Notes under the pieces: generated by a model | Seen by the model: the letters and a program-made list of their open reading frames with translations, nothing else | Databases searched by the model: none | Told to the model about the DNA's origin: nothing | In this document: one piece after another, positions 5,365 to 40,810 of the stretch | Layout of the letters: each line of letters begins with the position of its first letter | Position numbering within the stretch: the stretch's first letter is position 1 | Assembly: GCA_963803845.1 (NCBI GenBank) | Contig: CAWDNZ010000004.1 | Coordinates: 962,572 to 1,026,571, forward strand | Reading direction: 5' to 3' | DNA from: an uncultured Acidimicrobiales bacterium | Lineage (GTDB): Bacteria > Actinomycetota > Acidimicrobiia > Acidimicrobiales > SZUA-35 | DNA length: 64,000 nt | Translations under genes and position numbers: made by a program

Positions 5365-6366
5365 ATGCGAGCAGTTGTCCTCCCCCAGTCGAATGCGGAA
5401 TTGCTCGTCGTTCCGGACCATCTCGAACCCGAGGCGGACGATGGCGTGGTTCTCGATGTCACGGCGTGCGGGATCTGTCATTCCGACCTTCACGTTGTGG
5501 ACGGCGACTACGGCAAAGAGCCGCCGATCATCCTCGGGCATGAGGTCACCGGTGTCCATCCCGAACTGGGCCCGGTCATGCTGTATGCGCCGTGGGGCTG
5601 TGGGAATTGCCCGCAATGCGATCAGGGCCTGGAGATGCTGTGTCCCAACTCCAGCGAAGCGGGGTTGTTCACCGATGGTGGCTACGCCGAGCGGATGCGC
5701 ATTCCCAACCTGTCCTATCTGACCCCGCTCAACGGGCTGGATCCTTATGACGCAGCGCCACTGGCGTGCGGTGGGCTCACCGCATATCGGGCCGTACTTC
5801 ACGGCCTCGATCGCCTTCGCCAACGGGGTTCGGCAGCTCGGGCATTGATCATTGGGGCGGGCGGGCTTGGCCAATACGCCATCCGTTACCTTCGCCTTCT
5901 GACCGACGCCACGGTGGTGGCACTGGATCTCTCCCAGGCCAAACAGGCAACTGCGCTCGAGCTTGGTGCCCATCAGGCCGTTGTTGCTCTTGGTGGCGAA
6001 GAGCCGTTTGATCTGGTGATCGACTTCATCGGTGTTGAATCAACCTTGGCAACGGCGGCCGGGAGCGTGGCTCGCCTAGGACTGGTGGTGGTGGTGGGGC
6101 TTGGGGGTGGATCCATCCCGTTCGGTTTTGGGTCCGTACCGTTGGAGGCCCGTTTTGTCGCCAGTGTCTGGGGGAGTCGAGACCAGATGGATGAGCTGCT
6201 CGATTTCGCCCGCCGCGAACCATCGATCGTGCAACCGGTGGAGGTGCTGCCCTTGGCCGCCGCCCAGACAGCGCATTACCGTCTACGGGCGGGTGAAGTT
6301 CGCGGCCGTTTGGTGCTGGACATCAACGGAACCCGCACCCCTCAACCTGATGCACCTGATCGTTAG
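5365..6366 (+). CDS. Zinc-dependent alcohol dehydrogenase (MDR family)
   Basis: CGICHSDLH catalytic-zinc motif, GHEVTG, and a GAGGLG Rossmann motif. Confidence 0.85.
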   Translation: MRAVVLPQSNAELLVVPDHLEPEADDGVVLDVTACGICHSDLHVVDGDYGKEPPIILGHEVTGVHPELGPVMLYAPWGCGNCPQCDQGLEMLCPNSSEAGLFTDGGYAERMRIPNLSYLTPLNGLDPYDAAPLACGGLTAYRAVLHGLDRLRQRGSAARALIIGAGGLGQYAIRYLRLLTDATVVALDLSQAKQATALELGAHQAVVALGGEEPFDLVIDFIGVESTLATAAGSVARLGLVVVVGLGGGSIPFGFGSVPLEARFVASVWGSRDQMDELLDFARREPSIVQPVEVLPLAAAQTAHYRLRAGEVRGRLVLDINGTRTPQPDAPDR

Positions 6367-9040: not shown

Positions 9041-9056
9041 GCAGATCGAAGAGCCA

Positions 9057-9257
9057 ATGGTTCAACTGGCAATCGATGCCGATGTCTGCATCGGCGGCGG
9101 GCAATGCGAGATGGTGGAGCCCGAGACGTTCATCGTTGATGACGAGACCGTGATCGCCCGGTTCATCGGACCGCCCGAGCTGCCGAAATCTCGGGCCGAA
9201 CTCGTGGTGGAACGGTGCCCCAGCGGGGCCATCTCGGTCGTCTCGAACGCCAGCTGA
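9057..9257 (+). CDS. Small ferredoxin (3Fe-4S type, P450 redox partner)
   Basis: MVQLAIDADVCIGGGQCEMVEPETF...ERCPSGAISV. CxxGxxC...CP pattern. The track start at 9024 would overlap the P450. Confidence 0.8.
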   Translation: MVQLAIDADVCIGGGQCEMVEPETFIVDDETVIARFIGPPELPKSRAELVVERCPSGAISVVSNAS

Positions 9258-10720
9258 TGGAGACCTACGACAACTGGATCAACGGCTCCTTTGTGGTGCC
9301 GGCGGAAGGTCGGCGAATGCTGACGTCCAACCCGTACACCGGTGCGGCGTGGGCCGAAGTGGCGGATGATCCGACCGCGGTCGATGTAGCGGTACGGGCC
9401 GCCCGGGCGGCTTTCGAAGACGGGCCATGGGCTACGATGTCGGGCCAGGAACGCGCTCGCTGTATGCGCCGACTGGGTGAGCTCACCACCCGTGAGGCCG
9501 ATGCTCTCGCCAAGATCGAAACGCGCGACAACGGCAAGATCATCCGGGAGACCACCGCTCAAGCCAAGAGTCTGCAGAGCTATCTCGACTACTTCGCCGG
9601 CATGACCGACAAGATCGTTGGTCAACAGATCCCCAGTCCTTCACCCAATTTCTTGGTTTACACCGAACGCGTACCAAAAGGCGTGGTGGGAGCGATCATC
9701 CCGTGGAATTCGCCGCTGGCTCTGCTCACTTGGAAGCTAGGTCCACTCTTGGCCTCGGGCTGCACGGTGGTGGTGAAGCCATCGGACATCACCCCGGTCA
9801 CCGCCCTGCTGCTGGCGCAGCTGGCAAGCGAGGCCGGGTTCCCTGACGGTGTGATCAACGTGGTGACCGGTGGTGCGGAGGTTGGTGCCGGCATTACATC
9901 GCATCCCGGCATCGACAAGATCACCTTCACCGGCGGGGGCGCCACGGCTCGGCACGTGGCTCGGGCGGCCGCCGAGAACCTCACGCCAACGGTGTTGGAA
10001 TTGGGAGGAAAGTCCCCCCAGATTCTCTTTGCCGACGCCGATCCCGAGGCAGCTACCAATGGTCTGCTGGCCGGGATCTTTGCCGCCAGCGGGCAGACGT
10101 GTGTCGCCGGTTCGCGGGCGTACATTCACGTTGACATCGCAGACGAGATCATCGCACGGCTCGTGAAGCGCGCCGGCGAATTGGTCCTGGGCGATCCCAG
10201 CGACATCGCAACCGAGATGGGCCCGGCGGCGTCCGATGCCCAGCGTGATCGAATCATCTCGATGGTGGATAAGGCCCGAGCAGAGGGCGCTACGATCGCC
10301 GCCGGGGGTGTAGTTGATCCAGAGTTGGGTGGACGGTTCGTCCGGCCCACCGTGATCACCGGTGTCGACAACCAAACATCGATCGTCCGGGAAGAGGTTT
10401 TCGGCCCGGTGCTGGCGGTGATGACCTTCACCGACGAGGACGAGGTAGTCGAACTGGCCAACGACTCCGACTACGGCCTTGCTGCCGGGGTCTGGACCAA
10501 CGACATCCGTCGCGGCCATCGCATGGCCCGCAAACTCAACGTTGGCACAGTCTGGATCAACACCTACCGCAACGTTAGCTACATGGCGCCCTTCGGTGGC
10601 TTCAAACAGTCCGGTTACGGTCGGGACAACGGGCTGGAAGCTCTCGACGGCTTCCTTCAGACCAAGACCGTGTGGGTTGAGTTGGCGGGCGCAACTCGCG
10701 ACCCGTTCGTGGTGGGCTAG
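9257..10720 (+). CDS. NAD(P)-dependent aldehyde dehydrogenase
   Basis: METYDNWINGSF start overlaps the ferredoxin stop (TGATG). ELGGKSP and the GQTCVAGSR catalytic Cys are present. Confidence 0.9.
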   Translation: METYDNWINGSFVVPAEGRRMLTSNPYTGAAWAEVADDPTAVDVAVRAARAAFEDGPWATMSGQERARCMRRLGELTTREADALAKIETRDNGKIIRETTAQAKSLQSYLDYFAGMTDKIVGQQIPSPSPNFLVYTERVPKGVVGAIIPWNSPLALLTWKLGPLLASGCTVVVKPSDITPVTALLLAQLASEAGFPDGVINVVTGGAEVGAGITSHPGIDKITFTGGGATARHVARAAAENLTPTVLELGGKSPQILFADADPEAATNGLLAGIFAASGQTCVAGSRAYIHVDIADEIIARLVKRAGELVLGDPSDIATEMGPAASDAQRDRIISMVDKARAEGATIAAGGVVDPELGGRFVRPTVITGVDNQTSIVREEVFGPVLAVMTFTDEDEVVELANDSDYGLAAGVWTNDIRRGHRMARKLNVGTVWINTYRNVSYMAPFGGFKQSGYGRDNGLEALDGFLQTKTVWVELAGATRDPFVVG

Positions 10721-11347: not shown

Positions 11348-12592
11348 GTGACCCCCGCCGCCGCGCCCATCGATTTGAACGATCCGGCAACGTTCGCGGC
11401 CGGGATTCCTCACGAGGGCTTTTCCCAGATGCGAGCCGCCCCGGGGTTGTGTTGGTCCCCCGCCGGCCGGGGCGCAACGGCCGGCTTCTGGTCTGTCGCT
11501 CGCCACGCCGATCTTGGTGTGGTCTCCCGCGACTCCGCAACCTATTCCTCGGCCGTCGGCCATATCCAGATCTACGACATCGACGTTGACGCTCTGGATG
11601 CTCGGGCCTCCATGATCGACATGGACCCGCCGATCCACACCCGGCTACGGCGACTGGTGAGTTCGGCATTCACTCCTCGACATGTGCTGGCCTACACCGC
11701 GGCGGTTCGAAACCGCATACGCGCCGCGCTGGATGACCTTCAGGTCAACGGCGGTGGAGACTGGGTGAAGACGGTGGCTGCTCCGATCCCGATTGGCGTG
11801 ATCTGCGATCTGATGGGTGTTCCTGAAGAGGATCATCGCTACATGATCGAACTCTCGGATCATCTCGTAGCAGGCACCGGACAGGAGCCGTTGGAGCCCA
11901 CTGCGTACGGCAACACCACCGAGCTCCGGCTGCTCCCGTTCAACAGCCCGGCCGCATCGGCGATGTCCGCCTACGCCAACAAACTGGCCGACCGCCGCCG
12001 CTTGGCTCCAACTGACGATCTGATCTCCAAACTGATTACGGCCGAGATCGACGGTGAGCGACTGACACCCGACGAGTTCGCCAACTTTTTCCGGCTCATG
12101 ATTTTCGCTGGCAACGAAACCACGCGGTCGTCCATGGCCCACCTCGCCCTTCACCTCCAGCAGTTCCCGGATGCGTTTGCCGCGGTGGAACGGGATCGCT
12201 CACTGCTCCCTGCCGTGGCAGATGAGGTCATCCGTTACTCCTCGCCCATCCTCTACTTCCGGCGCACGGTCACTAAGGCAACCGAACTCGCCGGCACCCC
12301 GCTGACCGTTGGCGACAAGGTTGTCATGTGGTATGCATCGGCCAACTTCGACGCAACGGTCTTTCCCTCACCGCAGGAGTTCCGGGTGGATCGGCCGTCG
12401 GTCCCTGCCCATGTGGCTTTCGGCGGCGGTGGGGCTCACTATTGCCTCGGCGCCTCCCTGGCCCGGCTGGAAGTTTCCGTACTCATCGACGAGATCCTCG
12501 ATCGGCGGTTGCGGCCGGTCTCCACCGGCCAGCCGATCTTTGTGGAATCCAACTTCGTCAACGGCATAGAGTCACTCCCGGTGCACCTATGA
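11348..12592 (+). CDS. Cytochrome P450 (paralog 2)
   Basis: FGGGGAHYCLG, AGNETT, GTG start. Clearly paralogous to P450-1 (shared GNTTELRLLPFNSPA). Confidence 0.9.
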   Translation: MTPAAAPIDLNDPATFAAGIPHEGFSQMRAAPGLCWSPAGRGATAGFWSVARHADLGVVSRDSATYSSAVGHIQIYDIDVDALDARASMIDMDPPIHTRLRRLVSSAFTPRHVLAYTAAVRNRIRAALDDLQVNGGGDWVKTVAAPIPIGVICDLMGVPEEDHRYMIELSDHLVAGTGQEPLEPTAYGNTTELRLLPFNSPAASAMSAYANKLADRRRLAPTDDLISKLITAEIDGERLTPDEFANFFRLMIFAGNETTRSSMAHLALHLQQFPDAFAAVERDRSLLPAVADEVIRYSSPILYFRRTVTKATELAGTPLTVGDKVVMWYASANFDATVFPSPQEFRVDRPSVPAHVAFGGGGAHYCLGASLARLEVSVLIDEILDRRLRPVSTGQPIFVESNFVNGIESLPVHL

Positions 12593-18169: not shown

Positions 18170-18293
18170 CCCGTGGTTCGATGACAGTGAGCTCCGATGA
18201 CCTGAGCTCCGATGACCTGAGCTCCGATGACCTGAGCTCCGATGACCCGTGGTTCGATGACAGGGCGTTCCGATGACAGGGTGGTCTCGATGA
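18166..18293 (+). repeat. Junction VNTR: nine ATGA start/stop overlaps spaced 15-17 nt, including 3 exact units of ATGACCTGAGCTCCG
   Basis: ATGA at 18166, 18181, 18197, 18212, 18227, 18242, 18257, 18273 and 18290, read directly. Confidence 0.95.
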
Positions 18294-27532: not shown

Positions 27533-28995
27533 TCACCCGTCGGACTACCTCTGTGGCTGGGGTGACCGTCCCGCTCGATCACTTCATCGGCGGAAGATGG
27601 TTGGGTTCGCCGGAGGCGTTCGAAACTCGTTCACCGCTGAACTGGGAAGCCGGGCCCATCGCTCAGATCGCCCGCGGCGATGCCGCCGCCGCAACCGCCG
27701 CAGTGGATGCCGCTATCAACGGATTCGAGGCCTGGGGTTCCTATTCACCACGGGCTCGGGCCGAAGTGATGTATCGGCTGGCGGATCTCATCGAGGCCCA
27801 CAATGACGAGATCGCAATCGTGGAATCGATCGACATGGGGTTCATGTACGAGTCGATGAAGCAGCGACTGGTCGCCCGCGGTGCCGCCAACTTTCGCGTC
27901 TACGCCGACCTCATCGTGGCCCACGAAGAACGGGCGTGGGATGCCAAGAACATGCACAACGTTGTACAGAGAATGCCGGCCGGCCCCGCCGTTGTCATCA
28001 CCCCGTGGAACGCCCCGTTCATGCTGAGTACGTGGAAGCTGGCTCCGGCATTGGCTTCCGGTAATAGCGTGATCCACAAACCAGCCGAGTGGTCACCCCT
28101 CACCGCAGCGCTCCTGGCCGATCTCACCAACGAGGCCGGCTTCCCGCCGGGCGCCTACAACATGGTGCAGGGCATCGGCTCCGAAGTTGGTCCATCCCTC
28201 ACCGGTAACCCCGGTGTACGCAGAATCACTTTCACAGGCTCCCCGGCCACGGCCCGCACGATCGGCCACGCCGCTGCTGAAAACATCGTTCCCTTCACCG
28301 CCGAGCTCGGTGGGAAAGGCCCCATGATCGTTTTCGCCGATGCCGACCTGGATGCGGCCGCACACCGAGCTGCGTGGCAGTTCGATGATTCGGGGCAAGT
28401 CTGTCTGGCCGGGACACGGCTCCTGGTGGAGGAGTCCATCCGTGAACCGTTCATGGAACGCTTCAATTCGATTGTCGATGGCCTGGTCCTGGGCGACAGT
28501 CGGGAGGACAGCACCGATATCGCGCCGATGGTGCACCCAGATCATCGGGCCAACGTCCATGGCTTCGTTGAACGGGCCCGGGCCGCCGGGGACACCATTC
28601 TGCGAGGCGGTCAGCCGCTGCCAGACAGCCTGCATTACCAACCCACCCTGATCGAACCGGCCTCAAACGCTAGTGAAGTAGTGCAAAAAGAGATCTTCGG
28701 CCCGGTCCTCACGTTTCAAACCTTCGCCGATGAGGCTGAGGCGATTTCGCTGGCCAACAGCACTGCTTACGGCCTCTCCGCGATGGTGTGGACCACGTCA
28801 AAGGAACGGGCGGAGCGGGTTGGTCGCTCGCTGCGAACCGGTCTGGTGTGGGTGAACACATTCCTGGTCCGAGACCTCACCGCTCCCTTCGGCGGCTGTG
28901 GAATCAGTGGCATCGGCCGCGAAGGCGGAGACTACGCACTGGACTTCCACAGCGACATCAAGACGCTGATGATTCTGGACGACTCGGTGAGCTGA
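27529..28995 (+). CDS. Aldehyde dehydrogenase (hydroxymuconic-semialdehyde dehydrogenase-like)
   Basis: ELGGKGP, GQVCLAGTR catalytic Cys, EIFGPV. ATGA-type overlap with the FAH gene. Confidence 0.85.
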   Translation: MITRRTTSVAGVTVPLDHFIGGRWLGSPEAFETRSPLNWEAGPIAQIARGDAAAATAAVDAAINGFEAWGSYSPRARAEVMYRLADLIEAHNDEIAIVESIDMGFMYESMKQRLVARGAANFRVYADLIVAHEERAWDAKNMHNVVQRMPAGPAVVITPWNAPFMLSTWKLAPALASGNSVIHKPAEWSPLTAALLADLTNEAGFPPGAYNMVQGIGSEVGPSLTGNPGVRRITFTGSPATARTIGHAAAENIVPFTAELGGKGPMIVFADADLDAAAHRAAWQFDDSGQVCLAGTRLLVEESIREPFMERFNSIVDGLVLGDSREDSTDIAPMVHPDHRANVHGFVERARAAGDTILRGGQPLPDSLHYQPTLIEPASNASEVVQKEIFGPVLTFQTFADEAEAISLANSTAYGLSAMVWTTSKERAERVGRSLRTGLVWVNTFLVRDLTAPFGGCGISGIGREGGDYALDFHSDIKTLMILDDSVS

Positions 28996-29098
28996 CCAGC
29001 ACTCGTCACTTCGCTTGAGGGTTCACCTCCCAGATCCGTACCACCTAATCTCGCTACATCTTGGGTACGGGGCGGCGGTCCAGCTACGATCAAGCGCT

Positions 29099-29464
29099 GT
29101 GTCAGAGTTCTTACGCCAGTACCTTCTGGTTGCCGTTTTCGGGGGCCTCGCTTTCGGGCTCGTCGCCGTCCTTATCGGGGCTGCGTCGTTGTTCCGTCCT
29201 AGCCGCCCCAGCACCGGCAAGGTGGAGAACTATGAGTCCGGCGTAGATCCGGTGGGATCCAGTTGGAGTCAGTCCCAGATCCGCTACTACATCTTTGCCC
29301 TGCTCTTTGTGATGTTCGATGTTGAAGCCGTTTTCATCTTTCCGTGGGCGGCCCGACTCGAAGCCTTCGGCTTCTTTGGTCTTGTGGAAATGACCATCTT
29401 CATTTTCATTCTTGCTCTCGGCCTGGCCTACGCCTGGCGAAAAGGAGTACTCAAATGGGTATGA
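29099..29464 (+). CDS. nuoA: NADH-quinone oxidoreductase subunit A
   Basis: YESGVDPVG...IRYYIFALLFVMFDVEAVFIFPWA. GTG at 29099 gives the usual ~121 aa. Confidence 0.9.
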   Translation: MSEFLRQYLLVAVFGGLAFGLVAVLIGAASLFRPSRPSTGKVENYESGVDPVGSSWSQSQIRYYIFALLFVMFDVEAVFIFPWAARLEAFGFFGLVEMTIFIFILALGLAYAWRKGVLKWV

Positions 29465-29675
29465 GCGTGGAATCAGTCTCCTCTCCACACGGGATCGCAG
29501 CTTTGCCTGACAGCTCGCAACGACGCGAAAGCGTGGGGCAGTTCGAGCCGAACCGGTTGACCCAGTTAGTGGAGCGCCGGGTAGGCGAGGCCTCCGTGGC
29601 CGGCGGAACGGCCCCCGGAGGGAGTAATGCTCCCTGTCGGGTCACACGCCGGCGAGTGGAAACAGGAGTACTCAG
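29455..29675 (+). repeat. 221-bp insertion between nuoA and nuoB that duplicates the nuoA-stop/nuoB-start junction and holds a reverse copy of the downstream array motif
   Basis: AGGAGTACTCAAATGGGT at 29443-29460 versus AGGAGTACTCAGATGGGT at 29664-29681. AACGGCCCCCGGAGGGA at 29607-29623 is the reverse complement of 40130-40146. Confidence 0.85.
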
Positions 29676-29685
29676 ATGGGTCTAG
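29455..29685 (+). CDS. Possible 76-aa relay ORF inside the insertion (starts like NuoB, ends like NuoA)
   Basis: MGMSVES...GVLRWV*. Its ATG lies 7 nt before the nuoA stop, and its own stop lies 7 nt after the nuoB ATG. No recognisable domain. Confidence 0.3.
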
Positions 29686-30179
29686 TGGAGTCAGGAAAGA
29701 TCCCCAAGCCGCTCACCACGTTGCTGAACATGAGCCGAAAGTACTCGCTGTGGGTGTACCAGTGGGGCCTCGCTTGCTGCGCCATCGAGATGGGTGCGGC
29801 GTTCGGCTCACCTCGCTATGACGTCATGCGGCTTGGTGTCATTCCGTTGCCTGCCAGCCCCCGTCAAGCCGATTTTGTGTGCGTCTCGGGCACCGTCACC
29901 GACAAGATGGCCCCCGCCGTCCGTCGGTTGTATGAGCAGATGCCCGAACCCAAGTACGTCATCAGCATGGGGTCCTGTGCAAACTGTGGCGGTCCCTACT
30001 GGGACAGCTACTCCGTCACCAAGGGCGTTGACCAGATCATTCCCGTGGATGTCTACGTGCCCGGCTGCCCGCCCCGTCCGGAGGCGTTGCTCGAAGGAAT
30101 CGTCCTTCTTCAAGAGATGATTCAGAACGAGGACATGGTCGAGAAGTGGAAAGGTGATCCCCTTGCCATCGTCCACTGA
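29676..30179 (+). CDS. nuoB: NADH-quinone oxidoreductase subunit B
   Basis: [29 protein letters not shown] (N2 cluster ligands). Confidence 0.95.
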
Positions 30180-30888
30180 CACCGAGACCGCCGACGCACC
30201 TGATGCAGTAGACGAGGGCCGCTCAGCGCTGCTCGAAGCCATGCAGTCCGAACTTGGCGATGCGCTGGTGGAATCGCATCTCAACCACGGCGTCGATCTC
30301 ACCGTCCGCATCGCAAATGCAGCGTGGACAGACACCGCCAGCTACCTCCGCGACCGTCAGCGTTTTCGGTACTTCGGGTTCTTGAGCGCCATCGACTGGT
30401 TGCCTTCCCCCTTTGGCAGGTCCATGGACGCAGTGGTGGACACCCAGCAGGGATCGAGCGACTCCGACGAAGATGAAGCAGAAGAGATGGTGTCTGGTTT
30501 GGCTGGCGGTGATACGCGGTTTCAGATTCTGGCCCGGGTCTCCAGCCTCACCACCAACCTCGGCGTCACTTTGAAGTGTGACGTTGCGGATGAGAGCCCC
30601 ACTGTGGGGTCCTGGGTCGCCACTTATCCCGGCGCCGAATGGCACGAGCGGGAGACGTGGGAGATGTTCGGAATAACCTTCACCGGTCACCCCGGGCTGC
30701 GTCCGCTCTACCTTCCCGGCGACTTCGAGGGCAATCCGCTTCGCAAAGACTTTCCCCTTTTGGCTCGCATCATCAAGCCGTGGCCCGGGATCGTAGATGT
30801 TGAGCCGATGCCGGATGTCGAAACCGACGAGGTGGCGACCGCCCCGGCTGCGATTGACGATGAGTCAAGCGAGGTGACTCAGCCATGA
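30154..30888 (+). CDS. nuoC: NADH-quinone oxidoreductase subunit C
   Basis: [24 protein letters not shown]...PLRKDFPL. Contains an acidic insert ([11 protein letters not shown]). Confidence 0.9.
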
Positions 30889-32057
30889 CCGCCATAAGCG
30901 ACCGTCGCCAACTGGCCTACGTGGCCTCCCAGGCCGCCGAAGCCCGGGTGAATCTCGAACTCGAGACCGAGGGTATGACCCTCAATATCGGCCCCCAGCA
31001 CCCCGCCACCCATGGCACGCTCCGGATCGTGGCTCAACTCGATGGCGAGCAGGTGATCCAGGCCGAGCCGATCATGGGCTACATGCACCGGGGTTATGAG
31101 AAGCTCACCGAGGTCCGCACCTACCCCCAGGTCACCACGCTGGTCAACCGCATCGACTGGCTGGGCAGTTTCGCCAACGAGGTTCCGTTCATCCTGGCGT
31201 GCGAGCAACTCATGGATATCGAGGCGCCGCCGCGCGCCCAGCACATCCGAACCATTCTCCACGAGATGGCCCGCATGGCTCACGTCACCCTTTTCCTGGG
31301 CGACCTTGGAGTTCAGCTGGGGGCGATCACCCCGGTGTTCTACGCCTTCCGCGACCGTGAGCATGTTCTCAATCAGATCGAGTCCGCGACCGGCGGCCGC
31401 TTCCACCCCAACTTCGACCGCATCGGCGGTGTGAAGGACGACCTCCCGGCCGGTTGGATCGCCGAATCCAAGCAGGCCGTCCGCAAGATCCGAGATTTCT
31501 GCAACACGATCGAAGACCTGCTCTTTGGCAATGAGATCTTCCAGGCCCGTACCCGTGGCATCGGCGTGATCCCGGCCGACATCGGACTCAGCTATGGCCT
31601 AAGCGGAGCCAACATCCGTGCCTCTGGCGTGGATTGGGACCTGCGGCGAGACAACCCCAACGGACTGGCGTACGACAAGGTCGATTGGAAGGTCTGGACC
31701 CACCCCGACGGCGATGCTTTCGCCCGCTCGTGGGTTCGCCTGCAAGAAACTCGTGAGGCTTGCAGCATCGTGGAACAACTACTGGACACGATCCCCAAGG
31801 GGCCGATCATGGCCAAGGTGCCGCGCATCATCAAGGTGCCGGCGGGTGAGGCGTATGTTTCTACCGAGAATCCTCTTGGCGAGATGGGCTACTACGTAGT
31901 GTCCAAGGGTGGTCTCACCCCGTTCCGGGTGAAGATTCGGACAGCCAGCTTCAACAACATGTCCATTACGCCTTGGGTGCTCAAGGGGACCTATGTGCCG
32001 GATGTGATCACTATCCTCGCCAGCCTGTATTTCATTCTGGGAGACATCGACCGTTGA
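30885..32057 (+). CDS. nuoD: NADH-quinone oxidoreductase subunit D
   Basis: LNIGPQHPATHGTLRIV, GYMHRGYEKL, C-terminal LASLYFILGDIDR. Confidence 0.95.
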   Translation: MTAISDRRQLAYVASQAAEARVNLELETEGMTLNIGPQHPATHGTLRIVAQLDGEQVIQAEPIMGYMHRGYEKLTEVRTYPQVTTLVNRIDWLGSFANEVPFILACEQLMDIEAPPRAQHIRTILHEMARMAHVTLFLGDLGVQLGAITPVFYAFRDREHVLNQIESATGGRFHPNFDRIGGVKDDLPAGWIAESKQAVRKIRDFCNTIEDLLFGNEIFQARTRGIGVIPADIGLSYGLSGANIRASGVDWDLRRDNPNGLAYDKVDWKVWTHPDGDAFARSWVRLQETREACSIVEQLLDTIPKGPIMAKVPRIIKVPAGEAYVSTENPLGEMGYYVVSKGGLTPFRVKIRTASFNNMSITPWVLKGTYVPDVITILASLYFILGDIDR

Positions 32058-32077
32058 GCCCCTCGCTCGTTGACCAA

Positions 32078-33169
32078 ATGCTGAGCACCCCGCTGCTCGC
32101 CATTGAACTCGGTTGGGTGGAGTGGCTGGCAAAGGTGCTCGGCGTTTTGGCTGTGGTGATCCTGCCTGCCGGTGGAACGGTGTACCTCTATCTGTTCAAG
32201 ATGGTGTCGTTCATGCAGTCCCGTCTGGGGCCCATGGAAGCCGGGCCCTACGGATCAATGCAGCTTCTGGCCGAAGTGGGCAAGAACCTCCAGAAGGAAG
32301 ACATCTTCCCCGCCAAAGCCGATCGCACCGTCTTCGCATTTGCGCCCTATGTCGTGCTGGCCAGCACCTTTCTACTGGCCGTCGTCATCCCCTTTGGTCC
32401 CGAAGCGGGCTTTGCGTCACTGGACACCGGGAGCTTCGATGCCACTCAGTTCGACGGTGTAGGGGTCTTCTTCGCCCTCGCGGTCAGCTCCATCAGCGTC
32501 ATCGGCATCCTGATGGCGGGCTGGGGGAGTGCCTCCAAGTACTCATTGATGGGTGGTCTCCGAGCCGCTGGTCAGCTGATTGCGTACGAACTCCCGCTCG
32601 TCCTGGCAGTTGTTGGCGTGGTCATCCAGGCTGGAACCCTCAGCCTGCAAGGAATCGTCTACTCCCAGATCAACGGCGAGATTTTCGGATTCGGTGGTCT
32701 TGGCCTGCCGTACATCCTCACCCAGTTCGTAGGGTTCTTCATCTTCATGATCGCTGTGCAAGCAGAGCTCACCCAGACCCCGTTTGACATGCCGATCGCT
32801 GAATCCGAGCTCGTCACCGGCTACCTCACCGAGTACACCGGCTTCCGCTTCCTTGTTTTCTTCATCGCCGAGTTCGCAACGGCGGCGGTGTTTGCCTTCC
32901 TCGCCTCGGTGTTGTTCCTCGGTGGCTGGGCCATCCCGCCGTTCGTAATGGACATCTTCGGCATCGACGAGTTCAGCAACTGGTTCAACGTGATCGGCCC
33001 GGCCGTGATGGCCACCAAGATGTTGCTCCTCACCTTCGTCATCTACTGGGTTCGCTTCACCTTCCCCCGTTTCCGTGAGGACCAGTTGCAGCGGTTCGCC
33101 TGGAAGATTCTTATTCCTCTCTCCCTCGTCAACATCTTCGTGACGGGCCTCCTGAAAGTGGCGTTCTAA
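32078..33169 (+). CDS. nuoH: NADH-quinone oxidoreductase subunit H
   Basis: [42 protein letters not shown]. Alternative TTG start at 32054 overlaps the nuoD stop. Confidence 0.9.
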
Positions 33170-34227
33170 TGGGCCTTGTTCCTGGGTTGGTTACGGGTTT
33201 GGGGATCACCTTCAAGGAGATCATCAAGACGGTGGTGAAGGGTGCGGAGACCGTTCAGTACCCGCACGAGAAAGAAGAGCCAGCACCCCGCGCCCGTGGT
33301 GTGATCGCCCTGCACGAAGACAACTGCACGTCCTGCATGTTGTGCGCTCGTGAGTGCCCGGACTGGTGTATCTATATCGAGGGCCACAAGGAACTGGCTC
33401 CACCCCGGCGGGCTGGCGGCAAGCCCCGGTCGGTAAACAAACTCGACCGGTTCGACATCGACTATTCGCTGTGCATGTACTGCGGGATCTGTGTTGAGGT
33501 TTGCCCGTTCGAAGCCTTGTTCTGGTCGCCCGAGTATGAGTACTCCGAGTTCAAGATCGCCGACCTTTTGCACGACAAAGCCAAGCTCGGCAAGTGGATG
33601 ACCACCGTGCCCGAGTTCGAAGCCTACGAAGCAGGGGCCGAGGTCAAGGCCAAAAAGTCCCTGCTCTGGAAACGAAGTAGTCGATCGATGGCGAAGTTTT
33701 TCCTCCTCGGTCAGCAAACCGGCAACAGCTGGGATCTCCCTGCCAACATCGCGTTTTATGTGATCGCCGTCATCGCCATCGGATCTGCACTGCGCATGGT
33801 GACCACCAACAACGTGGTGCATTCGGCGCTCTACTTGCTGCTCGTGTTGGCATCGGTGGCGGCCGTCTACATCTTGCTGGGAGCCGAGTTCGTGGCCGCA
33901 ACCCAGGTGTTGGTGTACATCGGAGCCATCCTGGTGCTGCTGCTGTTCGGCGTGATGCTTACCCGGGCCCGTATCGGGATCGACGATGACCTCAACTACG
34001 AACAGCGATGGATAGGCCTCGGTGTCTCCAGTCTCCTGTTCGTTGTGATCGCCTACTCGCTGTGGGACTTCTACGGGTCCGACACCCGGCTCGTGGGGTA
34101 TGAACCCCAACGGACCGGCGAAGTTGCCGACTCCATCTTCAGCACCTACATCGTTCCTTTCGAAGCCATATCCGTCTTGCTGCTCGCAGCCCTCATCGGG
34201 GCCGTGGTCGTGGCCCGCCGGGACTAG
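33169..34227 (+). CDS. nuoI-nuoJ: NuoI (2x[4Fe-4S]) and NuoJ encoded in one uninterrupted 352-codon ORF
   Basis: The N-terminal half has [12 protein letters not shown] and [12 protein letters not shown]. The C-terminal half (from MAKFF, ATG 33688) has NuoJ blocks [11 protein letters not shown]...[16 protein letters not shown]...[15 protein letters not shown]. No stop codon lies between them. Confidence 0.8.
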
Positions 34228-34236
34228 GAGACCACC

Positions 34237-34551
34237 GTGTTACTGAACCAGTACCTGCTCTTGGCTGCCGCTCTGTTCTGTATCGGTGTGTACGGCGTGT
34301 TGACCCGCAAGAACGGTGTGATGGTCCTCATGAGCATCGAGCTGATTCTCAACGCAGTCAACATCAACATGGTGGCCTTTGGTGTTCACAACGCTGAAGC
34401 CGGCGCAGCCAGTGTGGGCGGGGCCGTATTCGCTCTGTTCATCATCGCGGTCGCCGCAGCCGAAGTTGGCGTCGGCCTGGCCATCGTCCTTCTCATCTAT
34501 CGCAATCGCCGCAGCATCAACGTTGCCGACGCAAGCCTGATGAAGGGCTGA
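34237..34551 (+). CDS. nuoK: NADH-quinone oxidoreductase subunit K
   Basis: LMSIELILNAVNINMVAF...AAAEVGVGLAI; GTG start. Confidence 0.95.
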   Translation: MLLNQYLLLAAALFCIGVYGVLTRKNGVMVLMSIELILNAVNINMVAFGVHNAEAGAASVGGAVFALFIIAVAAAEVGVGLAIVLLIYRNRRSINVADASLMKG

Positions 34552-34552
34552 T

Positions 34553-37051
34553 ATGTCACTCGTGTCCACCGCGTTGTTCGCCGCCGCTGCTGCCGAGACG
34601 TTCCAGCCCGCCAGCTGGCTCTTCGACAATGTCTGGATCGTGCCCGCTCTCCCGGCGCTGTCCTTCGCGTTGATCCTGCTTTTCGGCAAGAATTTCGCCA
34701 AGCACGTTCACATCCTTGGTATTGCCGCGGTTGCCACCGGACTGCTTTTCAGCACGGTCACCGCCTTCGCTTGGATCGGCCAGTACGAGGACGAGCAGTC
34801 CCAGCACGGTTCCGTCGAGGAGGATCACTCTGAAGAAGAGGGCGCCGGCGGCTTCGTCACCATCGCTACCGCCGATGAGGAAACGAGCGACGAGGACACC
34901 GATGCCGGTCACGCCGAAGAGGAGAGCGACGGGCACGACGACGACGGCCAGATCGCCGCTCGCGGCTGCAACGTTGCAGAAAACAACAAGGGCCGATTCG
35001 GGCCCACTGCCGACGAGCTGTCGATCGGTCAAGATGAATTCGCCCTCACCGACGTTTCCGAAATAGCGGCTACTGCCGAAGAGGTAGAAGAAGGGGGCGG
35101 CGGGGAGCACATCAAGCCGGCCGCCGTCGTCAATTGTCTCGACTGGCTCGAAACCGGTTCGTTTGGCTCCGACATCGGCGCATCCGGCGATGAGGCAGCT
35201 CAGGGTGGCCGCACCCTGAAGCTCAGTATCGGCACCATCGCCGACGGGCAGAGCATCATGATGCTCTTCGTCGTCACGTTCATCTCGCTCCTCGTCCACG
35301 TCTTCAGCACCGAGTACGTGAAGGGCGATCGACGCTACGTCCACTACTACGCGTTCCTCAGCCTGTTCACCGCCTCCATGCTGTTCATGGTCCTGTCGGC
35401 TTCAGCACTGCAGTTGATCGTTGGCTGGGAACTGGTGGGGGTCTGTTCTTTTGTGCTCATCGGCCATTGGTGGGAAGACCAAGACAATTCCAACGCCGCC
35501 CTCAAAGCCTTCCTCACCAACCGGGTGGGCGACATCGGCCTGCTCATCGGCATGATCGTGCTGTTCTTTGGCGCCGGTCAAACCTTCGACATCATGACCA
35601 TCAACCATGCCGCTGTGACCGGAGAGCTCAGCCAGACCACCATGACCGTGGCCAGCCTGTGTTTGCTGACCGCCGTGATGAGCAAGTCCGGTCAGTTCAT
35701 CCTCCACACCTGGCTACCCGACGCCATGGCCGGGCCCACTCCGGTCTCCGCACTGATCCATGCCGCCACCATGGTGGTAGCGGGGATCTACATGGTGGGC
35801 CGCCTCTACCCGGTGTTCTGGAACGGGCTCATGATCCCCGGCTCCAGTTTCAACATCCTCGCCTTCGTTGGCGCCCTCACCGTGGTAGGTGGTGGTGCGC
35901 TGGCATTCGTGCAGCGAGATATCAAGAAGGTCCTCGCTTACTCCACGGTCTCCCAACTCGGCTACATGGTGCTCGCCCTCGGAGTGGGCGCCTGGACCGC
36001 CGCAATGTTCCACCTCTTCACTCACGCCTTCTTCAAGGCATGCCTCTTCCTCGGCGCCGGCGCTCTCAGCCACGCCTGCCACCACAGCTTCGATATGAAA
36101 GACGAGATGGGCGGTCTTCGCAAGAAGATGCCCATCACCTTTGCTACGTTCATGATCGGTACCCTTGCCCTCGCCGGCGTGTTCCCGTTCGCAGGGTTCT
36201 GGAGCAAGGACGAGATCTTGGTGGGCACCGGCGGTTTCCCGGGCACCGACGCCAACGGCACCTACACCCTCCTCTTGATCATGGGCCTGATCGGCGCCGC
36301 CTTGACCGCCGGCTACATGACCAGGGCCATCTGGCTGATCTTCTTTGGCGAGTACCGAGGCCATGACCATCCCCACGATCCACCGCGGGCAATGTCCTGG
36401 TCGCTCATCATCCTGGCCGTCTTCGCGACGTTTGCGGGTTTCCTGAACATGCCGGCGGACTGGTTCGGGCCCATCGGTGAACGGTATGGCCTGAAGTTCG
36501 AGCAATGGTTCGAACCCGGTGGCGGCGATGTCTTCCCCGTGATCAGTCACGGCGACTCCAACCTCCTGCTGGCCATCGTGGCAACCCTTGCGGCGGTCGG
36601 CTCGGGCTACGTGGTGTGGAACTACTACCAGAAGCTCTACGCCAAGGACCCCACTGCCACCGAATACACCGACGGGATCCGCACCAAGAACACCTTCGCC
36701 AGCGCGGGTTACACGTTGTTGGAAAACAAGTACTACCTGGACCATCTCTACACAGGAATCATCACCGGTTTCACCAAGGGACCACTGGCCCGGGCGGCCT
36801 ATTGGGTGAATCAGAACGTGATCGACGAAGTCATCAACACCGCCGGCAGAACCACCACAGCGATGGGCCGGTTCGTGTACAGGTTCATCGATCAGGGCGC
36901 CATCGACGGTGCCGTCAACCTGTCAGGCAACAGCTCCTCCGACGTAGGTCAGGTCTTGCGGCGGATGCAGAGCGGTTCAATTCGTCAGTACGCCAGCCTC
37001 ATGTTCGGGGCAGCCACCGTGTTGGCTGCCGTGTTCATCGTGGCGGTATAG
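34553..37051 (+). CDS. nuoL: NADH-quinone oxidoreductase subunit L with a ~110-120 aa acidic insertion after TM2
   Basis: GWELVGVCSFVLIGHWW, HAATMVVAGIYMV, and the long C-terminal lateral-helix region. 832 aa, against my expectation of ~610-660 aa. Confidence 0.9.
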   Translation: MSLVSTALFAAAAAETFQPASWLFDNVWIVPALPALSFALILLFGKNFAKHVHILGIAAVATGLLFSTVTAFAWIGQYEDEQSQHGSVEEDHSEEEGAGGFVTIATADEETSDEDTDAGHAEEESDGHDDDGQIAARGCNVAENNKGRFGPTADELSIGQDEFALTDVSEIAATAEEVEEGGGGEHIKPAAVVNCLDWLETGSFGSDIGASGDEAAQGGRTLKLSIGTIADGQSIMMLFVVTFISLLVHVFSTEYVKGDRRYVHYYAFLSLFTASMLFMVLSASALQLIVGWELVGVCSFVLIGHWWEDQDNSNAALKAFLTNRVGDIGLLIGMIVLFFGAGQTFDIMTINHAAVTGELSQTTMTVASLCLLTAVMSKSGQFILHTWLPDAMAGPTPVSALIHAATMVVAGIYMVGRLYPVFWNGLMIPGSSFNILAFVGALTVVGGGALAFVQRDIKKVLAYSTVSQLGYMVLALGVGAWTAAMFHLFTHAFFKACLFLGAGALSHACHHSFDMKDEMGGLRKKMPITFATFMIGTLALAGVFPFAGFWSKDEILVGTGGFPGTDANGTYTLLLIMGLIGAALTAGYMTRAIWLIFFGEYRGHDHPHDPPRAMSWSLIILAVFATFAGFLNMPADWFGPIGERYGLKFEQWFEPGGGDVFPVISHGDSNLLLAIVATLAAVGSGYVVWNYYQKLYAKDPTATEYTDGIRTKNTFASAGYTLLENKYYLDHLYTGIITGFTKGPLARAAYWVNQNVIDEVINTAGRTTTAMGRFVYRFIDQGAIDGAVNLSGNSSSDVGQVLRRMQSGSIRQYASLMFGAATVLAAVFIVAV

Positions 37052-37060
37052 GGAGAGATT

Positions 37061-38602
37061 ATGTTCTGGGATGACTACAACTGGCTGACCACAGCGCTGG
37101 TCTTCACGCCGCTGGTCGGCGTGCTCATCATGATGGCGATACCTGCCAAAGACGAGGAGAGCCACAAGACTGTGGCGCTCATCACCACGCTGGTCACCGC
37201 CGGGCTGGGCGTCGTCATGTGGCGGCAGTTCGACTTCGGGCGGGCCAATGTTCTGCAGTTCGAATACAACCGGTCCTGGATCGAAGTGGTCAACGCCAAC
37301 TACAAAGTCGGCATCGACGGGATGAGCCTGCCACTCATTGCGCTCACACTCCTGGTCGTTCCGCTGGTCATCATCTACAGCTGGAACCACATCCCCAGTC
37401 CGGGGAACACCAAGATGTTCTTGATACTGACCTTGGTGCTCCACACCGGCATGCTCGGAAGTTTCGTTGCCCAGGATCTGGTGTTGTTCTTCGTCTTCTT
37501 CGAAATTGTTCTTCTCCCCATGTACTTCATGATCGGTGTGTGGGGTGGCGAGGATCGGTTGTATGCCGCGATCAAGTTCTTCCTTTTCACACTGTTCGGT
37601 TCGGCGCTCATGCTCGTCGCCTTCCTGGCGTTGTACTGGAACACTGGCAGCTCCACGTTCGACATGGTCAAGCTGGCCGAAGAGGTGGCCTCTCGAGACA
37701 TCTCCCTCACCACGCAGGTATTGATCTTCGGAGGGATGTTCCTGGGCTTTGGCATCAAGGTGCCGCTGTTCCCCTTCCACACATGGCTCCCCGATGCTCA
37801 CACCCAGGCACCAACCCAGGGTTCAGTCATCCTTGCTGCCGTGCTCCTGAAGTTGGGCACTTACGGCTTCATCCGGATCGCCATTCCGATTCTGCCCGAG
37901 GCGGCAGTGGAGTGGGCCCCATGGATCGGCCTGCTCGCCGTGATCGGAATCATCTACGGCGCCCTCGGCTGTCTGGCCCAAACCGACATGAAGCGTCTCA
38001 TCGCCTTCTCCTCGGTGGCCCATATGGGTTATGTGATGCTCGGCATCGCTACCCTCACCCCGTTCGGGATCAACGCCGCCATCTTCGGCATGGTCGCCCA
38101 TGGCCTGATTACCGGCATGTTGTTCTTCATCGCCGGCTCGGTGAAGGAGCGCTACCACACGCTGGAGATCGCCCGGCTGGGCGGTCTGCTCAAGCAGGCT
38201 CCTCACCTCGGCTGGATCCTCGGGTTCTGCACCATGGCTTCGCTGGGCCTTCCCGGTCTCGCTGGGTTCTGGGGTGAGTTCCCCGCCATCCTCGCCGCAT
38301 ACAACCCCGCCGAAGGTGTGAGCCAAACGCTTTTCCGGGTCTACATGGTGATCGCCGCAATCGGCACCGTGCTTGCCGCCGGTTACCTGCTTTGGCTGCT
38401 CCAGCGCACCGCCTTCGGTGAGCCCAGCGAAGAGTTCGCCGACGATCCCCACGTCCACGACGTAGTCGCCACCGAGTGGATCGCCTGGACCCCGCTCCTC
38501 GTACTGATCCTCCTGTTCGGTTTCCTTCCCGGCATCATCTTCGGAATCACCGATCCCGCCGTCGTGCAGGGCCTCCAGGCTCTCTCTCAAGGCGCTCCTT
38601 AA
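37061..38602 (+). CDS. nuoM: NADH-quinone oxidoreductase subunit M
   Basis: FPFHTWLPDAHTQAPTQGSVILAAVLLKLGTYGF. Confidence 0.95.
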   Translation: MFWDDYNWLTTALVFTPLVGVLIMMAIPAKDEESHKTVALITTLVTAGLGVVMWRQFDFGRANVLQFEYNRSWIEVVNANYKVGIDGMSLPLIALTLLVVPLVIIYSWNHIPSPGNTKMFLILTLVLHTGMLGSFVAQDLVLFFVFFEIVLLPMYFMIGVWGGEDRLYAAIKFFLFTLFGSALMLVAFLALYWNTGSSTFDMVKLAEEVASRDISLTTQVLIFGGMFLGFGIKVPLFPFHTWLPDAHTQAPTQGSVILAAVLLKLGTYGFIRIAIPILPEAAVEWAPWIGLLAVIGIIYGALGCLAQTDMKRLIAFSSVAHMGYVMLGIATLTPFGINAAIFGMVAHGLITGMLFFIAGSVKERYHTLEIARLGGLLKQAPHLGWILGFCTMASLGLPGLAGFWGEFPAILAAYNPAEGVSQTLFRVYMVIAAIGTVLAAGYLLWLLQRTAFGEPSEEFADDPHVHDVVATEWIAWTPLLVLILLFGFLPGIIFGITDPAVVQGLQALSQGAP

Positions 38603-38610
38603 GGTCTCGA

Positions 38611-40128
38611 ATGCTCTCTCTTCTCGCACAGATTGATCAGCCGGAGTTCCTCCGGCCAGACATCGACTGGCATGCTGTGGCGCCCGAGCTGCTGTTGCTC
38701 GGCGGTGGGGCCATCATCACCACGCTGGATTTGGTCTTCCTGGAGCGCGTCCGTAAATACATGCCCACCCTCACCGGGCTCACGTTTCTCATTCCACTGA
38801 TCGCCGTTCTCACGCTCTGGAACCAATCCGAGGATCTTCCCCGGGTAATGTTCGACGGCGCATACGTGGTGGATCGTTACTCGCTGGCTCTCAAGATCCT
38901 GTTCCTGCTGTCGGGTTATGTGGTTGTGCTGCTGTCCAGCGAGTACATGGCCGAGGGCGACTATTACGAAAGCGAGTTCTATCAGCTGTTGTCGGCATCG
39001 CTCCTAGGCATGATCGTCATGAGCTCGGCGCGTGATCTCATCTCGATCTTCGTCGCCCTCGAACTCATCTCCATCCCGGCCTACCTCATGGCGGCGTGGC
39101 GCAAGCGGGACCTCAAATCCAACGAAGCCGGCCTCAAATACATGCTGATGGGCGTATTCGCCAGCGGCATCATGCTGTATGGAATGAGCCTGCTTTATGG
39201 CTTCACCGGCGATACCAAGCTGTCCGCCATCGCCGGCGCTATTGGAAACGGTGGTGAAACGTCGCCGCTCATCACCTTGGCCATCGTGTTCACCGTGATC
39301 GGGTTCGGGTTCAAAGTGAGCGCCGTTCCGTTCCACACCTGGGCGCCGGACACCTATGAAGGCGCCCCCACGCCCCTCACCGCCTTCCTTGCCGTGGCCT
39401 CCAAGTCCGCCGGATTCGTGGCACTGATCAGCATCGTTCTGGTGGCGCTCCCAGCCCAGTCCAACGTGGTGGAGCCCCTCATGTGGGTCCTCTCCGCTCT
39501 GACCATGACCGTCGGCAACCTGATCGCCCTCCGTCAGACCAACATCGTCCGCATGCTGGCCTACTCCGGCGTGGCCCAGGCTGGCTACATGCTGGCGCCA
39601 CTCGCCGTGTTCGGCGACAACTTCACCGGAACCACCAACCCGGCGAACGCCATCGTCAACTACTTACTGGTCTATGCAGCCATGAACCTCGGAGCCTTCG
39701 CCGTGGTGCTGCTGGTGGCTCGCAAGACTCGCTCGGGTGAGATCGCCAGCTATGGCGGACTCATGAATTACGCCCCCGGGCTTGGCGCCGCCATGACGCT
39801 GTTCATGTTCTCCCTCGCCGGCATCCCGCCGGTGGGTGGCTGGTGGGCCAAGTTCCAGATCTTCAACGTTCTCACCCAGAACGGGTCCTGGGCCGGAATC
39901 TCCCTAGCGGTGATCGCAGCCGTGAACAGCGTGATCGCGGCGTTCTACTACCTGAACATCGCCAAGCAGATGTGGTTCCTGCCCGAACCGAACGAAGATC
40001 ACACCCCGATCGGCTTCCCGGCCCCACTGGCGATTGCTCTCGGCATCACCGTGATCGCCACCATCGTGTTCGGCATCCTGCCCGGCATCACCGGCGATCT
40101 CAGCGACTTCACCAACGTCGCGCTCTAA
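38611..40128 (+). CDS. nuoN: NADH-quinone oxidoreductase subunit N
   Basis: FKVSAVPFHTWAPDTYEGAPTP. ATG at 38611 lies just after the nuoM stop. Confidence 0.9.
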   Translation: MLSLLAQIDQPEFLRPDIDWHAVAPELLLLGGGAIITTLDLVFLERVRKYMPTLTGLTFLIPLIAVLTLWNQSEDLPRVMFDGAYVVDRYSLALKILFLLSGYVVVLLSSEYMAEGDYYESEFYQLLSASLLGMIVMSSARDLISIFVALELISIPAYLMAAWRKRDLKSNEAGLKYMLMGVFASGIMLYGMSLLYGFTGDTKLSAIAGAIGNGGETSPLITLAIVFTVIGFGFKVSAVPFHTWAPDTYEGAPTPLTAFLAVASKSAGFVALISIVLVALPAQSNVVEPLMWVLSALTMTVGNLIALRQTNIVRMLAYSGVAQAGYMLAPLAVFGDNFTGTTNPANAIVNYLLVYAAMNLGAFAVVLLVARKTRSGEIASYGGLMNYAPGLGAAMTLFMFSLAGIPPVGGWWAKFQIFNVLTQNGSWAGISLAVIAAVNSVIAAFYYLNIAKQMWFLPEPNEDHTPIGFPAPLAIALGITVIATIVFGILPGITGDLSDFTNVAL

Positions 40129-40810
40129 TTCCCTCCGGGGGCCGTTCAAACGCCACGGAGGCTTTGCCTTCGGCCTGGCGACAGATGCTTGCGTGGCTTT
40201 GTGTTTGACTGCATAGGGCTTCCCTCCGGGGGGCGTGCTCTGACTCCCTCCGGGGGCGTGCTCTGACTCCCTCCGGGGGGCGTTCCGCCGGGCACGCAGC
40301 CCTCGCCTTCGGCTTGGCGACAGATGCTTGCGTGGCTTTGTGTTTGACTGCGCAACGATTCCCTTCGGGGGCGTGCTCTGACTCCCTCCGGGGGCCGTTC
40401 AAACGCCACGGAGGCTTTGCCTTCGGCCTGCCAAAGATGCGTCAGAAACTGAATGCGTGACTGCATAGGGCTTCCCTTCGGGGGCGTGCTCTGACTCCCT
40501 CCGGGGGGCGTTCCGCCGGGCACGCAGCCCTCGCCTTCGGCCTGGCGACAGATGCTTGCGTGGCTTTGTGTTTGACTGCATAGGGCTTCCCTTCGGGGGC
40601 GTGCTCTGACTCCCTCCGGGGGGCGTTCCGCCGGGCACGCAGCCCTCGCCTTCGGCCTGGCGACAGATGCTTGCGTGGCTTTGTGTTTGACTGCATAGGG
40701 CTTCCCTCCGGGGGCCGTTCAAACGCCACGGAGGCTTTGCCTTCGGCCTGGCGACAGATGCTTGCGTGGCTTTGTGTTTGACTGCGCAACGATTCCCTCC
40801 GGGGGGCGTT
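40129..40810 (+). repeat. Mosaic (BIME-like) intergenic repeat array: 12 P motifs, 6 Y cores, 2 connector types, 5 mini-units
   Basis: Modules read directly. There is an exact 115-bp tandem duplication (40473-40587 and 40588-40702). Confidence 0.95.

Follow-up and report, generated by a model that had tools for sequence, protein, structure and literature searches.

A short repeat unit within a duplicated nuoA/nuoB junction of an uncultured Acidimicrobiales bacterium, and a candidate relay open reading frame across it

Introduction

Mycobacterial interspersed repetitive units (MIRUs) insert at start codons and contain an internal open reading frame (ORF) coupled to the downstream gene, minimising the impact on expression, as set out in a review (PMC12548453, citing Supply et al., 1997). 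A second described class, the rickettsial palindromic elements (RPEs), consists of repeats of ~100-150 nucleotides (nt) that insert in frame into protein-coding genes, so that their translation forms a segment of the host protein (PMC10969869). Considered here is the junction between nuoA and nuoB in a 64,000-nt stretch of DNA from an uncultured Acidimicrobiales bacterium (assembly GCA_963803845.1, contig CAWDNZ010000004.1, positions 962,572 to 1,026,571); this whole stretch is termed the window, and its own numbering is used below. The two genes are separated by 211 nt, the sequence of their junction is present twice, and one full unit of a short dispersed repeat family lies between the two copies in antisense orientation. 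A frame of 76 codons (ORF76) bridges the gap from a relic nuoB start to a relic nuoA stop.

Overlapping start/stop junctions in essential operons are usually regarded as closed to insertion. Here a junction has been opened without loss of either gene: its signals occur twice, and a filler ORF that takes both its start and its stop from the spare set would carry ribosomes over selfish DNA. The structural part of this account, a duplicated junction around a repeat unit, is near certain. The full account, which adds a two-step history and the relay ORF, is the best found for this locus and is favoured, with considerable reserve.

Structure of the nuoA/nuoB junction

The upstream copy of the junction, D1 (29430-29476, plus strand), contains the nuoA 3' end, the ancestral nuoB Shine-Dalgarno sequence (AGGAG, 29443-29447), a relic ATG at 29455, the nuoA stop and relic nuoB codons 4-7 (GTGGAATCAG); the ancestral overlap of relatives with which D1 was compared reads ATGGGNCTAGTNGA. 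The downstream copy, D2 (29647-29694, plus strand), contains a diverged nuoA 3' end, a Shine-Dalgarno sequence AGGAG at 29664-29668, the nuoB ATG at 29676 and the TAG stop of the relay frame at 29683-29685. The string AGGAGTACTCAAATGGGT at 29443-29460 recurs as AGGAGTACTCAGATGGGT at 29664-29681, an offset of 221 nt, and similarity reaches the nuoB 5' end (GTGGAATCAG at 29467-29476 versus GTGGAGTCAG at 29685-29694). The local alignment of D1 and D2 has 39 columns and two small indels, and its score was attained by none of 200 flank shuffles. Inspection by eye extends the duplication further upstream (ACGCCTGGCGA... at 29430 versus ACGCCGGCGAGTGG... at 29647); the D1 limit near 29430 is read in this way, and the duplication measures ~47 nt. 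An 8-nt palindrome, GAGTACTC, is found in both copies (29446-29453 and 29666-29673), and minimum-energy and centroid folds pair the two palindromes, looping out the whole insert and covering both Shine-Dalgarno regions.

The 211 nt from the nuoA stop to the nuoB start are composite, consisting of the D1 tail, 55 nt without a match, the 94-nt antisense unit, a 21-nt linker and the D2 head. Comparison of the unassigned part (29477-29531) with the comparison loci by blastn-short gave nothing beyond chance, and the left 55-66 nt of the spacer had no match among these loci. The repeat unit (29532-29625, minus strand) is one full copy, recognised by a profile search and by its matches to a tandem array downstream of nuoN and to metagenome contig L096, as detailed below; on the minus strand it reads ACTCCCTCCGGGGGCCGTTC...GCCACGGAGGC...CGAACTGCCCCACG. 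The linker (29626-29646, minus strand) has a weak resemblance to a 23-nt module of the array in the alignment of array unit u2, which counts as weak evidence. Together with the 5' end of the unit it makes up the tip, GGGAG-UAAUG-CUCCC, of a predicted imperfect mRNA hairpin (29593-29660, plus strand).

ORF76 (29455-29685, plus strand) runs from the relic nuoB start in D1 to the relic nuoA stop in D2. Its product would read MGMSVES...GVLRWV(stop), NuoB-like at the start and NuoA-like at the end, and its stop overlaps the real nuoB ATG (ATGGGTCTAG). The relay frame alone is stop-free in the window insert; the other two frames contain 2 and 4 stops.

A preliminary description of this locus, made from the letters of the DNA, had already reported a duplicated junction and a bridging ORF of this hybrid kind. 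Its coordinates for the stops, the ATGs, the repeated strings and the ORF are all correct on re-checking, and the D1-D2 alignment bears out the duplication. The same description spoke of a 221-bp repeat element, and this needs correction: the unit is ~94 nt, and 221 nt is the offset between the junction copies.

The junction in related genomes

The junction was compared in 80 related loci and the window (81 comparable; one locus unscorable); NuoB is alignable from residue 1 across the 80 related loci. A 10-nt overlap, ATGGGNCTAG, is present in 36 of the 81, another short overlap in 5, and gaps of 3-211 nt in 39. The 10-nt overlap appears to be the ancestral state. The nuoA/nuoB junction had been counted among the most conserved operon junctions in bacteria, a view that does not hold within this order, where 39 of 81 junctions are gapped and 41 overlapping: it is often opened in Acidimicrobiales and is not especially conserved there. 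Opening the junction always requires duplication of the overlapped signals. At the nuoA end of L004, L008, and L015 the string ATGGG..TAG is retained, and a new start, ATGGG, lies downstream; these are duplicated junctions without the repeat element, and two of them, L015 and L008, also have relay ORFs that end at +9. Termination falls between -10 and +13 relative to the nuoB start in most other lineages with a relic start, three lineages being exceptions; this pattern is partly expected because the conserved nuoB 5' end has stops in both other frames.

Some spacers have features of their own. The nuoA/nuoB spacer of L068 (9952-10000) contains a 15-16-nt tandem repeat (GACGAACTTGGATGT, ~3 copies), and that of L005 (9935-10000) contains a GC hairpin.

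Two metagenome contigs, L001 and L002, encode a NuoB 100% identical to that of the window, with ~88% nucleotide identity to the window and nuoA-nuoB gaps of 37 and 91 nt. Their bridging ORFs, of 18 and 36 codons, have the same MG... start and the same ...WV(stop) end at nuoB +9, and the length differences among the three junctions (174 and 54 nt) are both multiples of 3. A 21-nt block at window 29646-29666 (ACGCCGGCGAGTGGAAACAGG) matches ACGCCGGCGAGTGGAAGCAGG of L001 and L002 with one mismatch (95%). The L001 spacer, in which CCGGAGCGGAACG is followed directly by CCGGCGAG..., reads as window 29600-29611 joined to 29649 onward; CCGGAGCGGAACG, the 13 nt before the common block, agrees with 29600-29611 at 12 of 13 positions with one gap, compared with 5 of 13 in the placement made by MAFFT. 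Positions 29600-29611 are interior to the repeat unit, and L001 would thus retain 12 nt of the element. These short matches suggest that the L001 and L002 junctions arose by deletion from one like that of the window, and that L002 has in addition a tandem duplication of 54 nt; on that reading the insertion would be older than the split of the window, L001, and L002 lineages.

The repeat family

Within the window, the 17-mer AACGGCCCCCGGAGGGA has 9 matches at <=2 mismatches, compared with 0.05 expected; apart from the junction copy, every match falls in the array at 40130-40810, on the opposite strand. The chance that this shared 17-mer might prove unique, which the preliminary description had left open, is thereby removed. 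The 10-mer GCCTCCGTGG at 29590-29599 is the reverse complement of 40153-40162, the inverted match between junction and array covers 43 nt at 91%, and the junction unit matches L096 over 52 nt at 94%. An nhmmer profile made from 8 metagenome copies only, with no window sequence, recovers the junction copy on the minus strand (29625 to 29532, E 4.2e-13, model positions 1-91) and six array units, each with E 2.6e-07 or better. The exact 20-mer ACTCCCTCCGGGGGSCGTTC is present on 16 metagenome contigs; assembly RCMY01 is the source of several, and at least one has a marine label. These 16 contigs, with copies in both orientations, and the profile match agree with the dispersed, orientation-independent family first proposed for this locus. 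None of the 82 loci from the nuoB searches (L001-L082) contains the repeat family, which therefore does not travel with the nuo operon.

A literature search for described Acidimicrobiia repeat families returned nothing relevant. The family is a short dispersed one from a narrow marine Acidimicrobiales lineage, previously undescribed in the literature searched. It is best read as a small interspersed repeat family, MIRU- and RPE-like in behaviour, that survives in translated DNA.

In the long unit of ~91-100 nt, the invariant 20-mer is followed by a variable loop and then by GCCACG[G/C]AGGC, after which come a small GCC-loop-GGC hairpin, a variable stretch of ~35 nt, and CGGACTGCNCAACG; the family also has a short form of 39 nt and a module of 23 nt. 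Copies at unrelated loci are located past gene ends, in coding sequence, and at operon junctions, in both orientations relative to the genes. Intergenic copies are in sense orientation, a few to ~75 nt past stop codons (window, L083, L086, L095, and L097). The tandem array of the window (40128-40810, plus strand) directly follows nuoN, beginning 2 nt past the stop and extending ~700 nt; six units of ~91-115 nt are accompanied by 23-nt modules, a truncated unit comes last, and the periods of 91, 115, and 139 nt are not multiples of 3. A homologous shorter array is present at L083 1464-1741 (~280 nt versus ~700 nt in window 40128-40810), where nuoM/N have 93.6% nucleotide identity. The array after nuoN behaves as a variable-number marker that differs between close relatives.

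The 23-nt array modules (TCCCTCCGGGGGCGT plus GCTCTGAC) look like the nuoN end (GCTCTAAT), repeated and joined to the element start. The reverse complement of the element 5' end, GGAGGGAGT, lies 4-5 nt upstream of a gene-start-like GTG on L089 (~2569-2585) and L090 (~200-216), and the N-terminus that follows this GTG on L090 has a GNAT-like look; the element may thus donate a Shine-Dalgarno sequence. In the window, GGAGGGAGT precedes an ATG at 29627 that opens a 64-codon ORF in the third frame across the nuoB start (29627-29821, plus strand). If used, this ORF could interfere with nuoB initiation.

Copies in coding sequence and at a second operon junction

On L087 (4283-4382), an antisense family copy lies inside the gene (4170-6296, minus strand) for a 708-residue old yellow enzyme/FAD oxidoreductase that resembles N-methylproline demethylase. 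The insertion is exactly 93 nt, or 31 codons, and is in frame; the flanking repeat is at most 2-4 nt (GTCA/GTCA), and the ends of the insertion, read from the alignment, have no inverted repeat. The empty site is found in a 92%-identical homologue (L099 470-690), and 11 other homologues are also without the 31 residues. A 34-nt family core in a dnaE2-like gene for DNA polymerase III alpha (L094 7453-7486; ORF 6753-10160, minus strand) is a probable second in-frame coding insertion. The HHH_6 domain of this protein, in which the core lies, has 106 residues versus 89 profile positions, 17 longer than the Pfam profile; a PDB look-up for the segment returned nothing. The repeat family thus appears to disperse and to be tolerated in translated DNA.

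A second operon junction with the same repeat family is found at L084 2210-2442 (minus strand), between cysD and cysN/C, which are 215 nt apart and were identified by Pfam (PAPS_reduct for cysD; GTP_EFTU and APS_kinase for cysN/C). The element is in sense orientation here. This junction is duplicated as well (TTCTGAGATGAGTCATCA...GAACT versus TTCTG, a three-column gap, TGAGTCATCA...GAACT), and a bridge of 76 codons, MSHQ...CFCESSV(stop), begins 1 nt after the cysD stop with a CysN-like start, enters the downstream junction copy in frame with cysD, and runs 16 nt into cysN before it ends. It is the sole open frame; in both junction cases, the two other frames contain 2-4 stops.

Long flanking duplications were searched for at every copy and are significant only at the two junction copies (window and L084); 11 other copies or arrays, intergenic copies included, have no significant flanking repeat. 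An apparent 21-nt flank repeat at L094 (p~0.01) is in conserved dnaE2 coding sequence and was set aside as looking like chance. Given the clean L087 insertion and the other copies without flanking repeats, the long junction duplications are not the ordinary footprint of the family.

Origin and possible role of the relay frame

The history that best fits the locus has two steps. First, the junction would have been duplicated in tandem, as happens repeatedly in Acidimicrobiales, giving a dispensable, translated spacer, and the repeat element would then have landed in this duplicated-junction spacer; in L001 and L002, the insert would later have shrunk by net in-frame deletions. The old nuoB Shine-Dalgarno sequence and ATG in D1 would allow ribosomes that finish nuoA, or that load there, to translate ORF76. 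These ribosomes would cross the GC-rich repeat, melt the hairpin, and reach the old nuoA stop, which in D2 lies 7 nt past the nuoB ATG; termination there would result in hand-over to nuoB with the ancestral coupling geometry. Selection would act on an open frame that ends at the nuoB start and not on the peptide, and the ORF76 peptide itself is probably junk. The odds that the relay is functional, with ORF76 coupling translation across the junction, are judged about even.

Several points weigh against this account. The order of duplication first and element second is a presumption, though the most likely one. MAFFT places the L001 spacer on the window otherwise than the deletion reading requires, and the fold of the whole junction is not unusually stable (z = -1.2). 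The joint chance of two open, in-phase bridges, ~0.006, is a crude figure that comes from two loci only, and these may belong to the same or related populations. D2 has its own good Shine-Dalgarno sequence, AGGAG, 7 nt before the nuoB ATG, so that nuoB could initiate without the relay. Finally, stop-free frames in the family units number 55 compared with 45 expected, which is not significant; the idea that the family is built stop-free in many frames was rejected on this count.

The last two points favour the main rival, in which the open 76-codon frame is accidental, nuoB is translated from its own Shine-Dalgarno sequence in D2, and the bridge is a neutral by-product without a role. This is a possible explanation, though a doubtful one. 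It gains from the observation that a shuffled insert at ~62% GC stays open 24% of the time (the prior for the right phase is 1/3), and from the relatives L003 and L005, which have gaps without a usable relay. It fits less well with the cysD/cysN junction of L084, where the recurrence of an open in-phase bridge is suggestive, with the persistence of the bridge through length changes of 174 and 54 nt in L001 and L002, and with the open in-phase bridges of L015 and L008, which occur without the element; moreover, the other two frames are closed by 2-4 stops in both junction cases. Since family units are not depleted of stops, the open bridges at the junctions look like the result of a filter on those particular copies.

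The two-step history has a competitor in a one-step insertion, in which the junction duplication of ~30-47 nt is the target-site duplication of the element itself, made by widely staggered cuts. This is unlikely. Both junction copies (window and L084) are flanked by long direct target duplications, as such a mechanism would predict, but the clean 93-nt insertion of L087 has a flanking repeat of at most 2-4 nt, the 11 other copies or arrays have no significant one, and the match at L094 looks like chance. Furthermore, L015, L004, and L008 have junction duplications without the element, and family sequence does not account for ~75 nt of the stretch between D1 and D2. An insertion that duplicates the junction was also how the preliminary description read the locus; the duplication stands, but its attribution to the element probably does not, given the short L087 repeat and the three element-free junctions. 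Similarly unlikely is a mobile element specialised for gene boundaries, landing at stops and starts either way, whose own insertion duplicates 30-50 nt and builds a relay ORF from host signals; if true, both the mechanism of insertion and the route by which compact operons come to tolerate selfish DNA would be new.

Less probable again is that the insert acts in cis as RNA, setting the NuoA:NuoB ratio as an attenuator, as a hairpin for processing or stability, or as a small RNA. The imperfect hairpin noted at the outset is recovered as the minimum-energy fold of 29593-29660 (-47.1 kcal/mol, z = -2.14; 5 of 200 shuffles fold as well), and REP and Correia elements affect mRNA stability and processing (PMC10969869). 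However, this hairpin is specific to the junction, formed by the unit end and local flank, and is not a family feature; it is lost in L001. Single-sequence folds of family units (z 0 to -1.5) are no more stable than shuffles. The family consensus structure has three 3-4-bp helices (-12 kcal/mol) and one covarying pair (GGGGG[C/G]CGU with ACG[G/C]AG), and because it is minimal the repeat family is not called a structured RNA. The earlier suggestion of folding the insert and looking for covariation among copies thus upholds a hairpin (z = -2.1) but not a structure shared across the family. The short 39-nt form (L093) folds as CCUCCG..GGCC-loop-GGCC..CGGAGG, a stem that is broken in a G-variant, and covariation favours another 4-bp helix. 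Rfam 15 at the gathering threshold gives 0 matches over the window; at E up to 10, matches in the array are at chance level and the junction has none. A promoter and terminator scan of 28900-30000 found no such site within the insert, and copies of the family occur in either orientation and also within coding sequence. Regulatory RNA is therefore an unlikely explanation of the insert.

That ORF76 encodes a genuine small protein, such as an extra complex I subunit or an assembly factor, is very improbable. It has a good Shine-Dalgarno sequence and ATG, and one gene caller calls it on contig L100. However, no homologue was found among 5.8 billion proteins, no Pfam family matches, and an exact-protein look-up has nothing on record, so that the conserved extra subunit once considered as an alternative has no homologue to rest on. 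About 31 of the 76 codons are an antisense read of the repeat unit, the versions in relatives whose NuoB is identical have 18 and 36 codons and lack most of ORF76, and the bridge on L084 is of unrelated sequence.

Least credible is an assembly artefact or chimera at a repeat: contig L100, from an independent Logan assembly (920 nt, with 100% identity to window 28686-29605), does break off at 29605, within the repeat core, as is usual for short-read assemblies at repeats, but it confirms D1 and the first 140 nt of the spacer, so that the left half of the junction is not an artefact, and in addition D1 and D2 differ by substitutions and indels, D2-side sequence is also present in L001 and L002, and nuoA and nuoB are both intact.

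The nuo operon and other features of the window

The source belongs to Acidimicrobiales, and the NuoB proteins of the closest species representatives are 96-97% identical. The nuo operon (29099-40128) consists of 11 genes in the order A-B-C-D-H-I-J-K-L-M-N, without nuoE, nuoF, and nuoG. The nuoA gene (29099-29464, plus strand) encodes 121 residues from a GTG at 29099 to a TGA stop at 29462-29464; Pfam Oxidored_q4 matches over the full length (E 5.6e-36), and the exact protein is also encoded by L100. The nuoB gene (29676-30179, plus strand) is intact and encodes 167 residues (Pfam Oxidored_q6). An exact look-up of the NuoD protein gave no match.

Elsewhere in the window, two 15-nt tandem repeat tracts are located within long ORFs (633-752, CGCTGCCGATGACAG-like, and 18188-18277, TGAGCTCCGATGACC). 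The segments 8321-8913 and 11903-12495, which are 3582 nt apart, are 74-82% identical, which suggests paralogous genes in tandem.

Comparison with known repeat systems

MITEs, the miniature transposable elements with inverted repeats, share with the present family a small size, a non-autonomous look, and toleration inside an operon; the present family differs in having no terminal inverted repeats and no fixed-length target-site duplication beyond at most 2-4 nt. Repetitive extragenic palindromes and the mosaic elements that they form (REP/BIME), together with BOX elements, are closer in several respects: these are also GC-rich short units with small hairpins that cluster past gene ends and within operons, with a modular build (here a 23-nt and a ~91-nt module) and a copy number that varies between strains. 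Apparent differences from REP/BIME are that the invariant 20-nt block ACTCCCTCCGGGGGSCGTTC is not a simple palindrome, and that most units are in direct tandem and not in alternating orientation.

The likeness to RPEs rests on the L087 copy, with its 93 nt or 31 codons in frame and an empty site in a relative. RPEs have a conserved peptide and are palindromic, whereas each of the three antisense-oriented copies (window, L087, and L094) is read in a frame of its own, and neither a strong palindrome nor a terminal inverted repeat is seen in the present family.

MIRUs appear to be functionally the closest known system to the nuoA/nuoB relay. As the review cited above presents them, they are short repeats of an actinobacterial lineage, located inside operons at gene starts, often in tandem and variable in number, and the insertion is tolerated because they contain a translated filler ORF with a stop that is coupled to the start downstream; at the nuoA/nuoB junction the corresponding translation is predicted. 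In position, the bridging ORF overlaps the flanking stop and start as in MIRUs: ORF76 opens 7 nt ahead of the nuoA stop and closes 7 nt past the nuoB ATG. The MIRU ORF, again as described in that review, is intrinsic to the element and co-oriented with the genes, with -4 spacing, whereas here the start and the stop come from the duplicated host junction. The present element can also be read either way, being antisense in the window and sense on L084, and its periods of 91, 115, and 139 nt do not have the frame-keeping unit length of MIRUs, with which it was compared by description.

The locus adds a repeat family with variable-number marker behaviour to those of Acidimicrobiales, and carries a warning for genome annotation that ORFs like ORF76 should not be called as proteins. 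A similar solution at two operons, persisting through changes in length, offers a natural and testable case of how far termination-reinitiation depends on geometry, and would extend the MIRU idea outside the mycobacteria.

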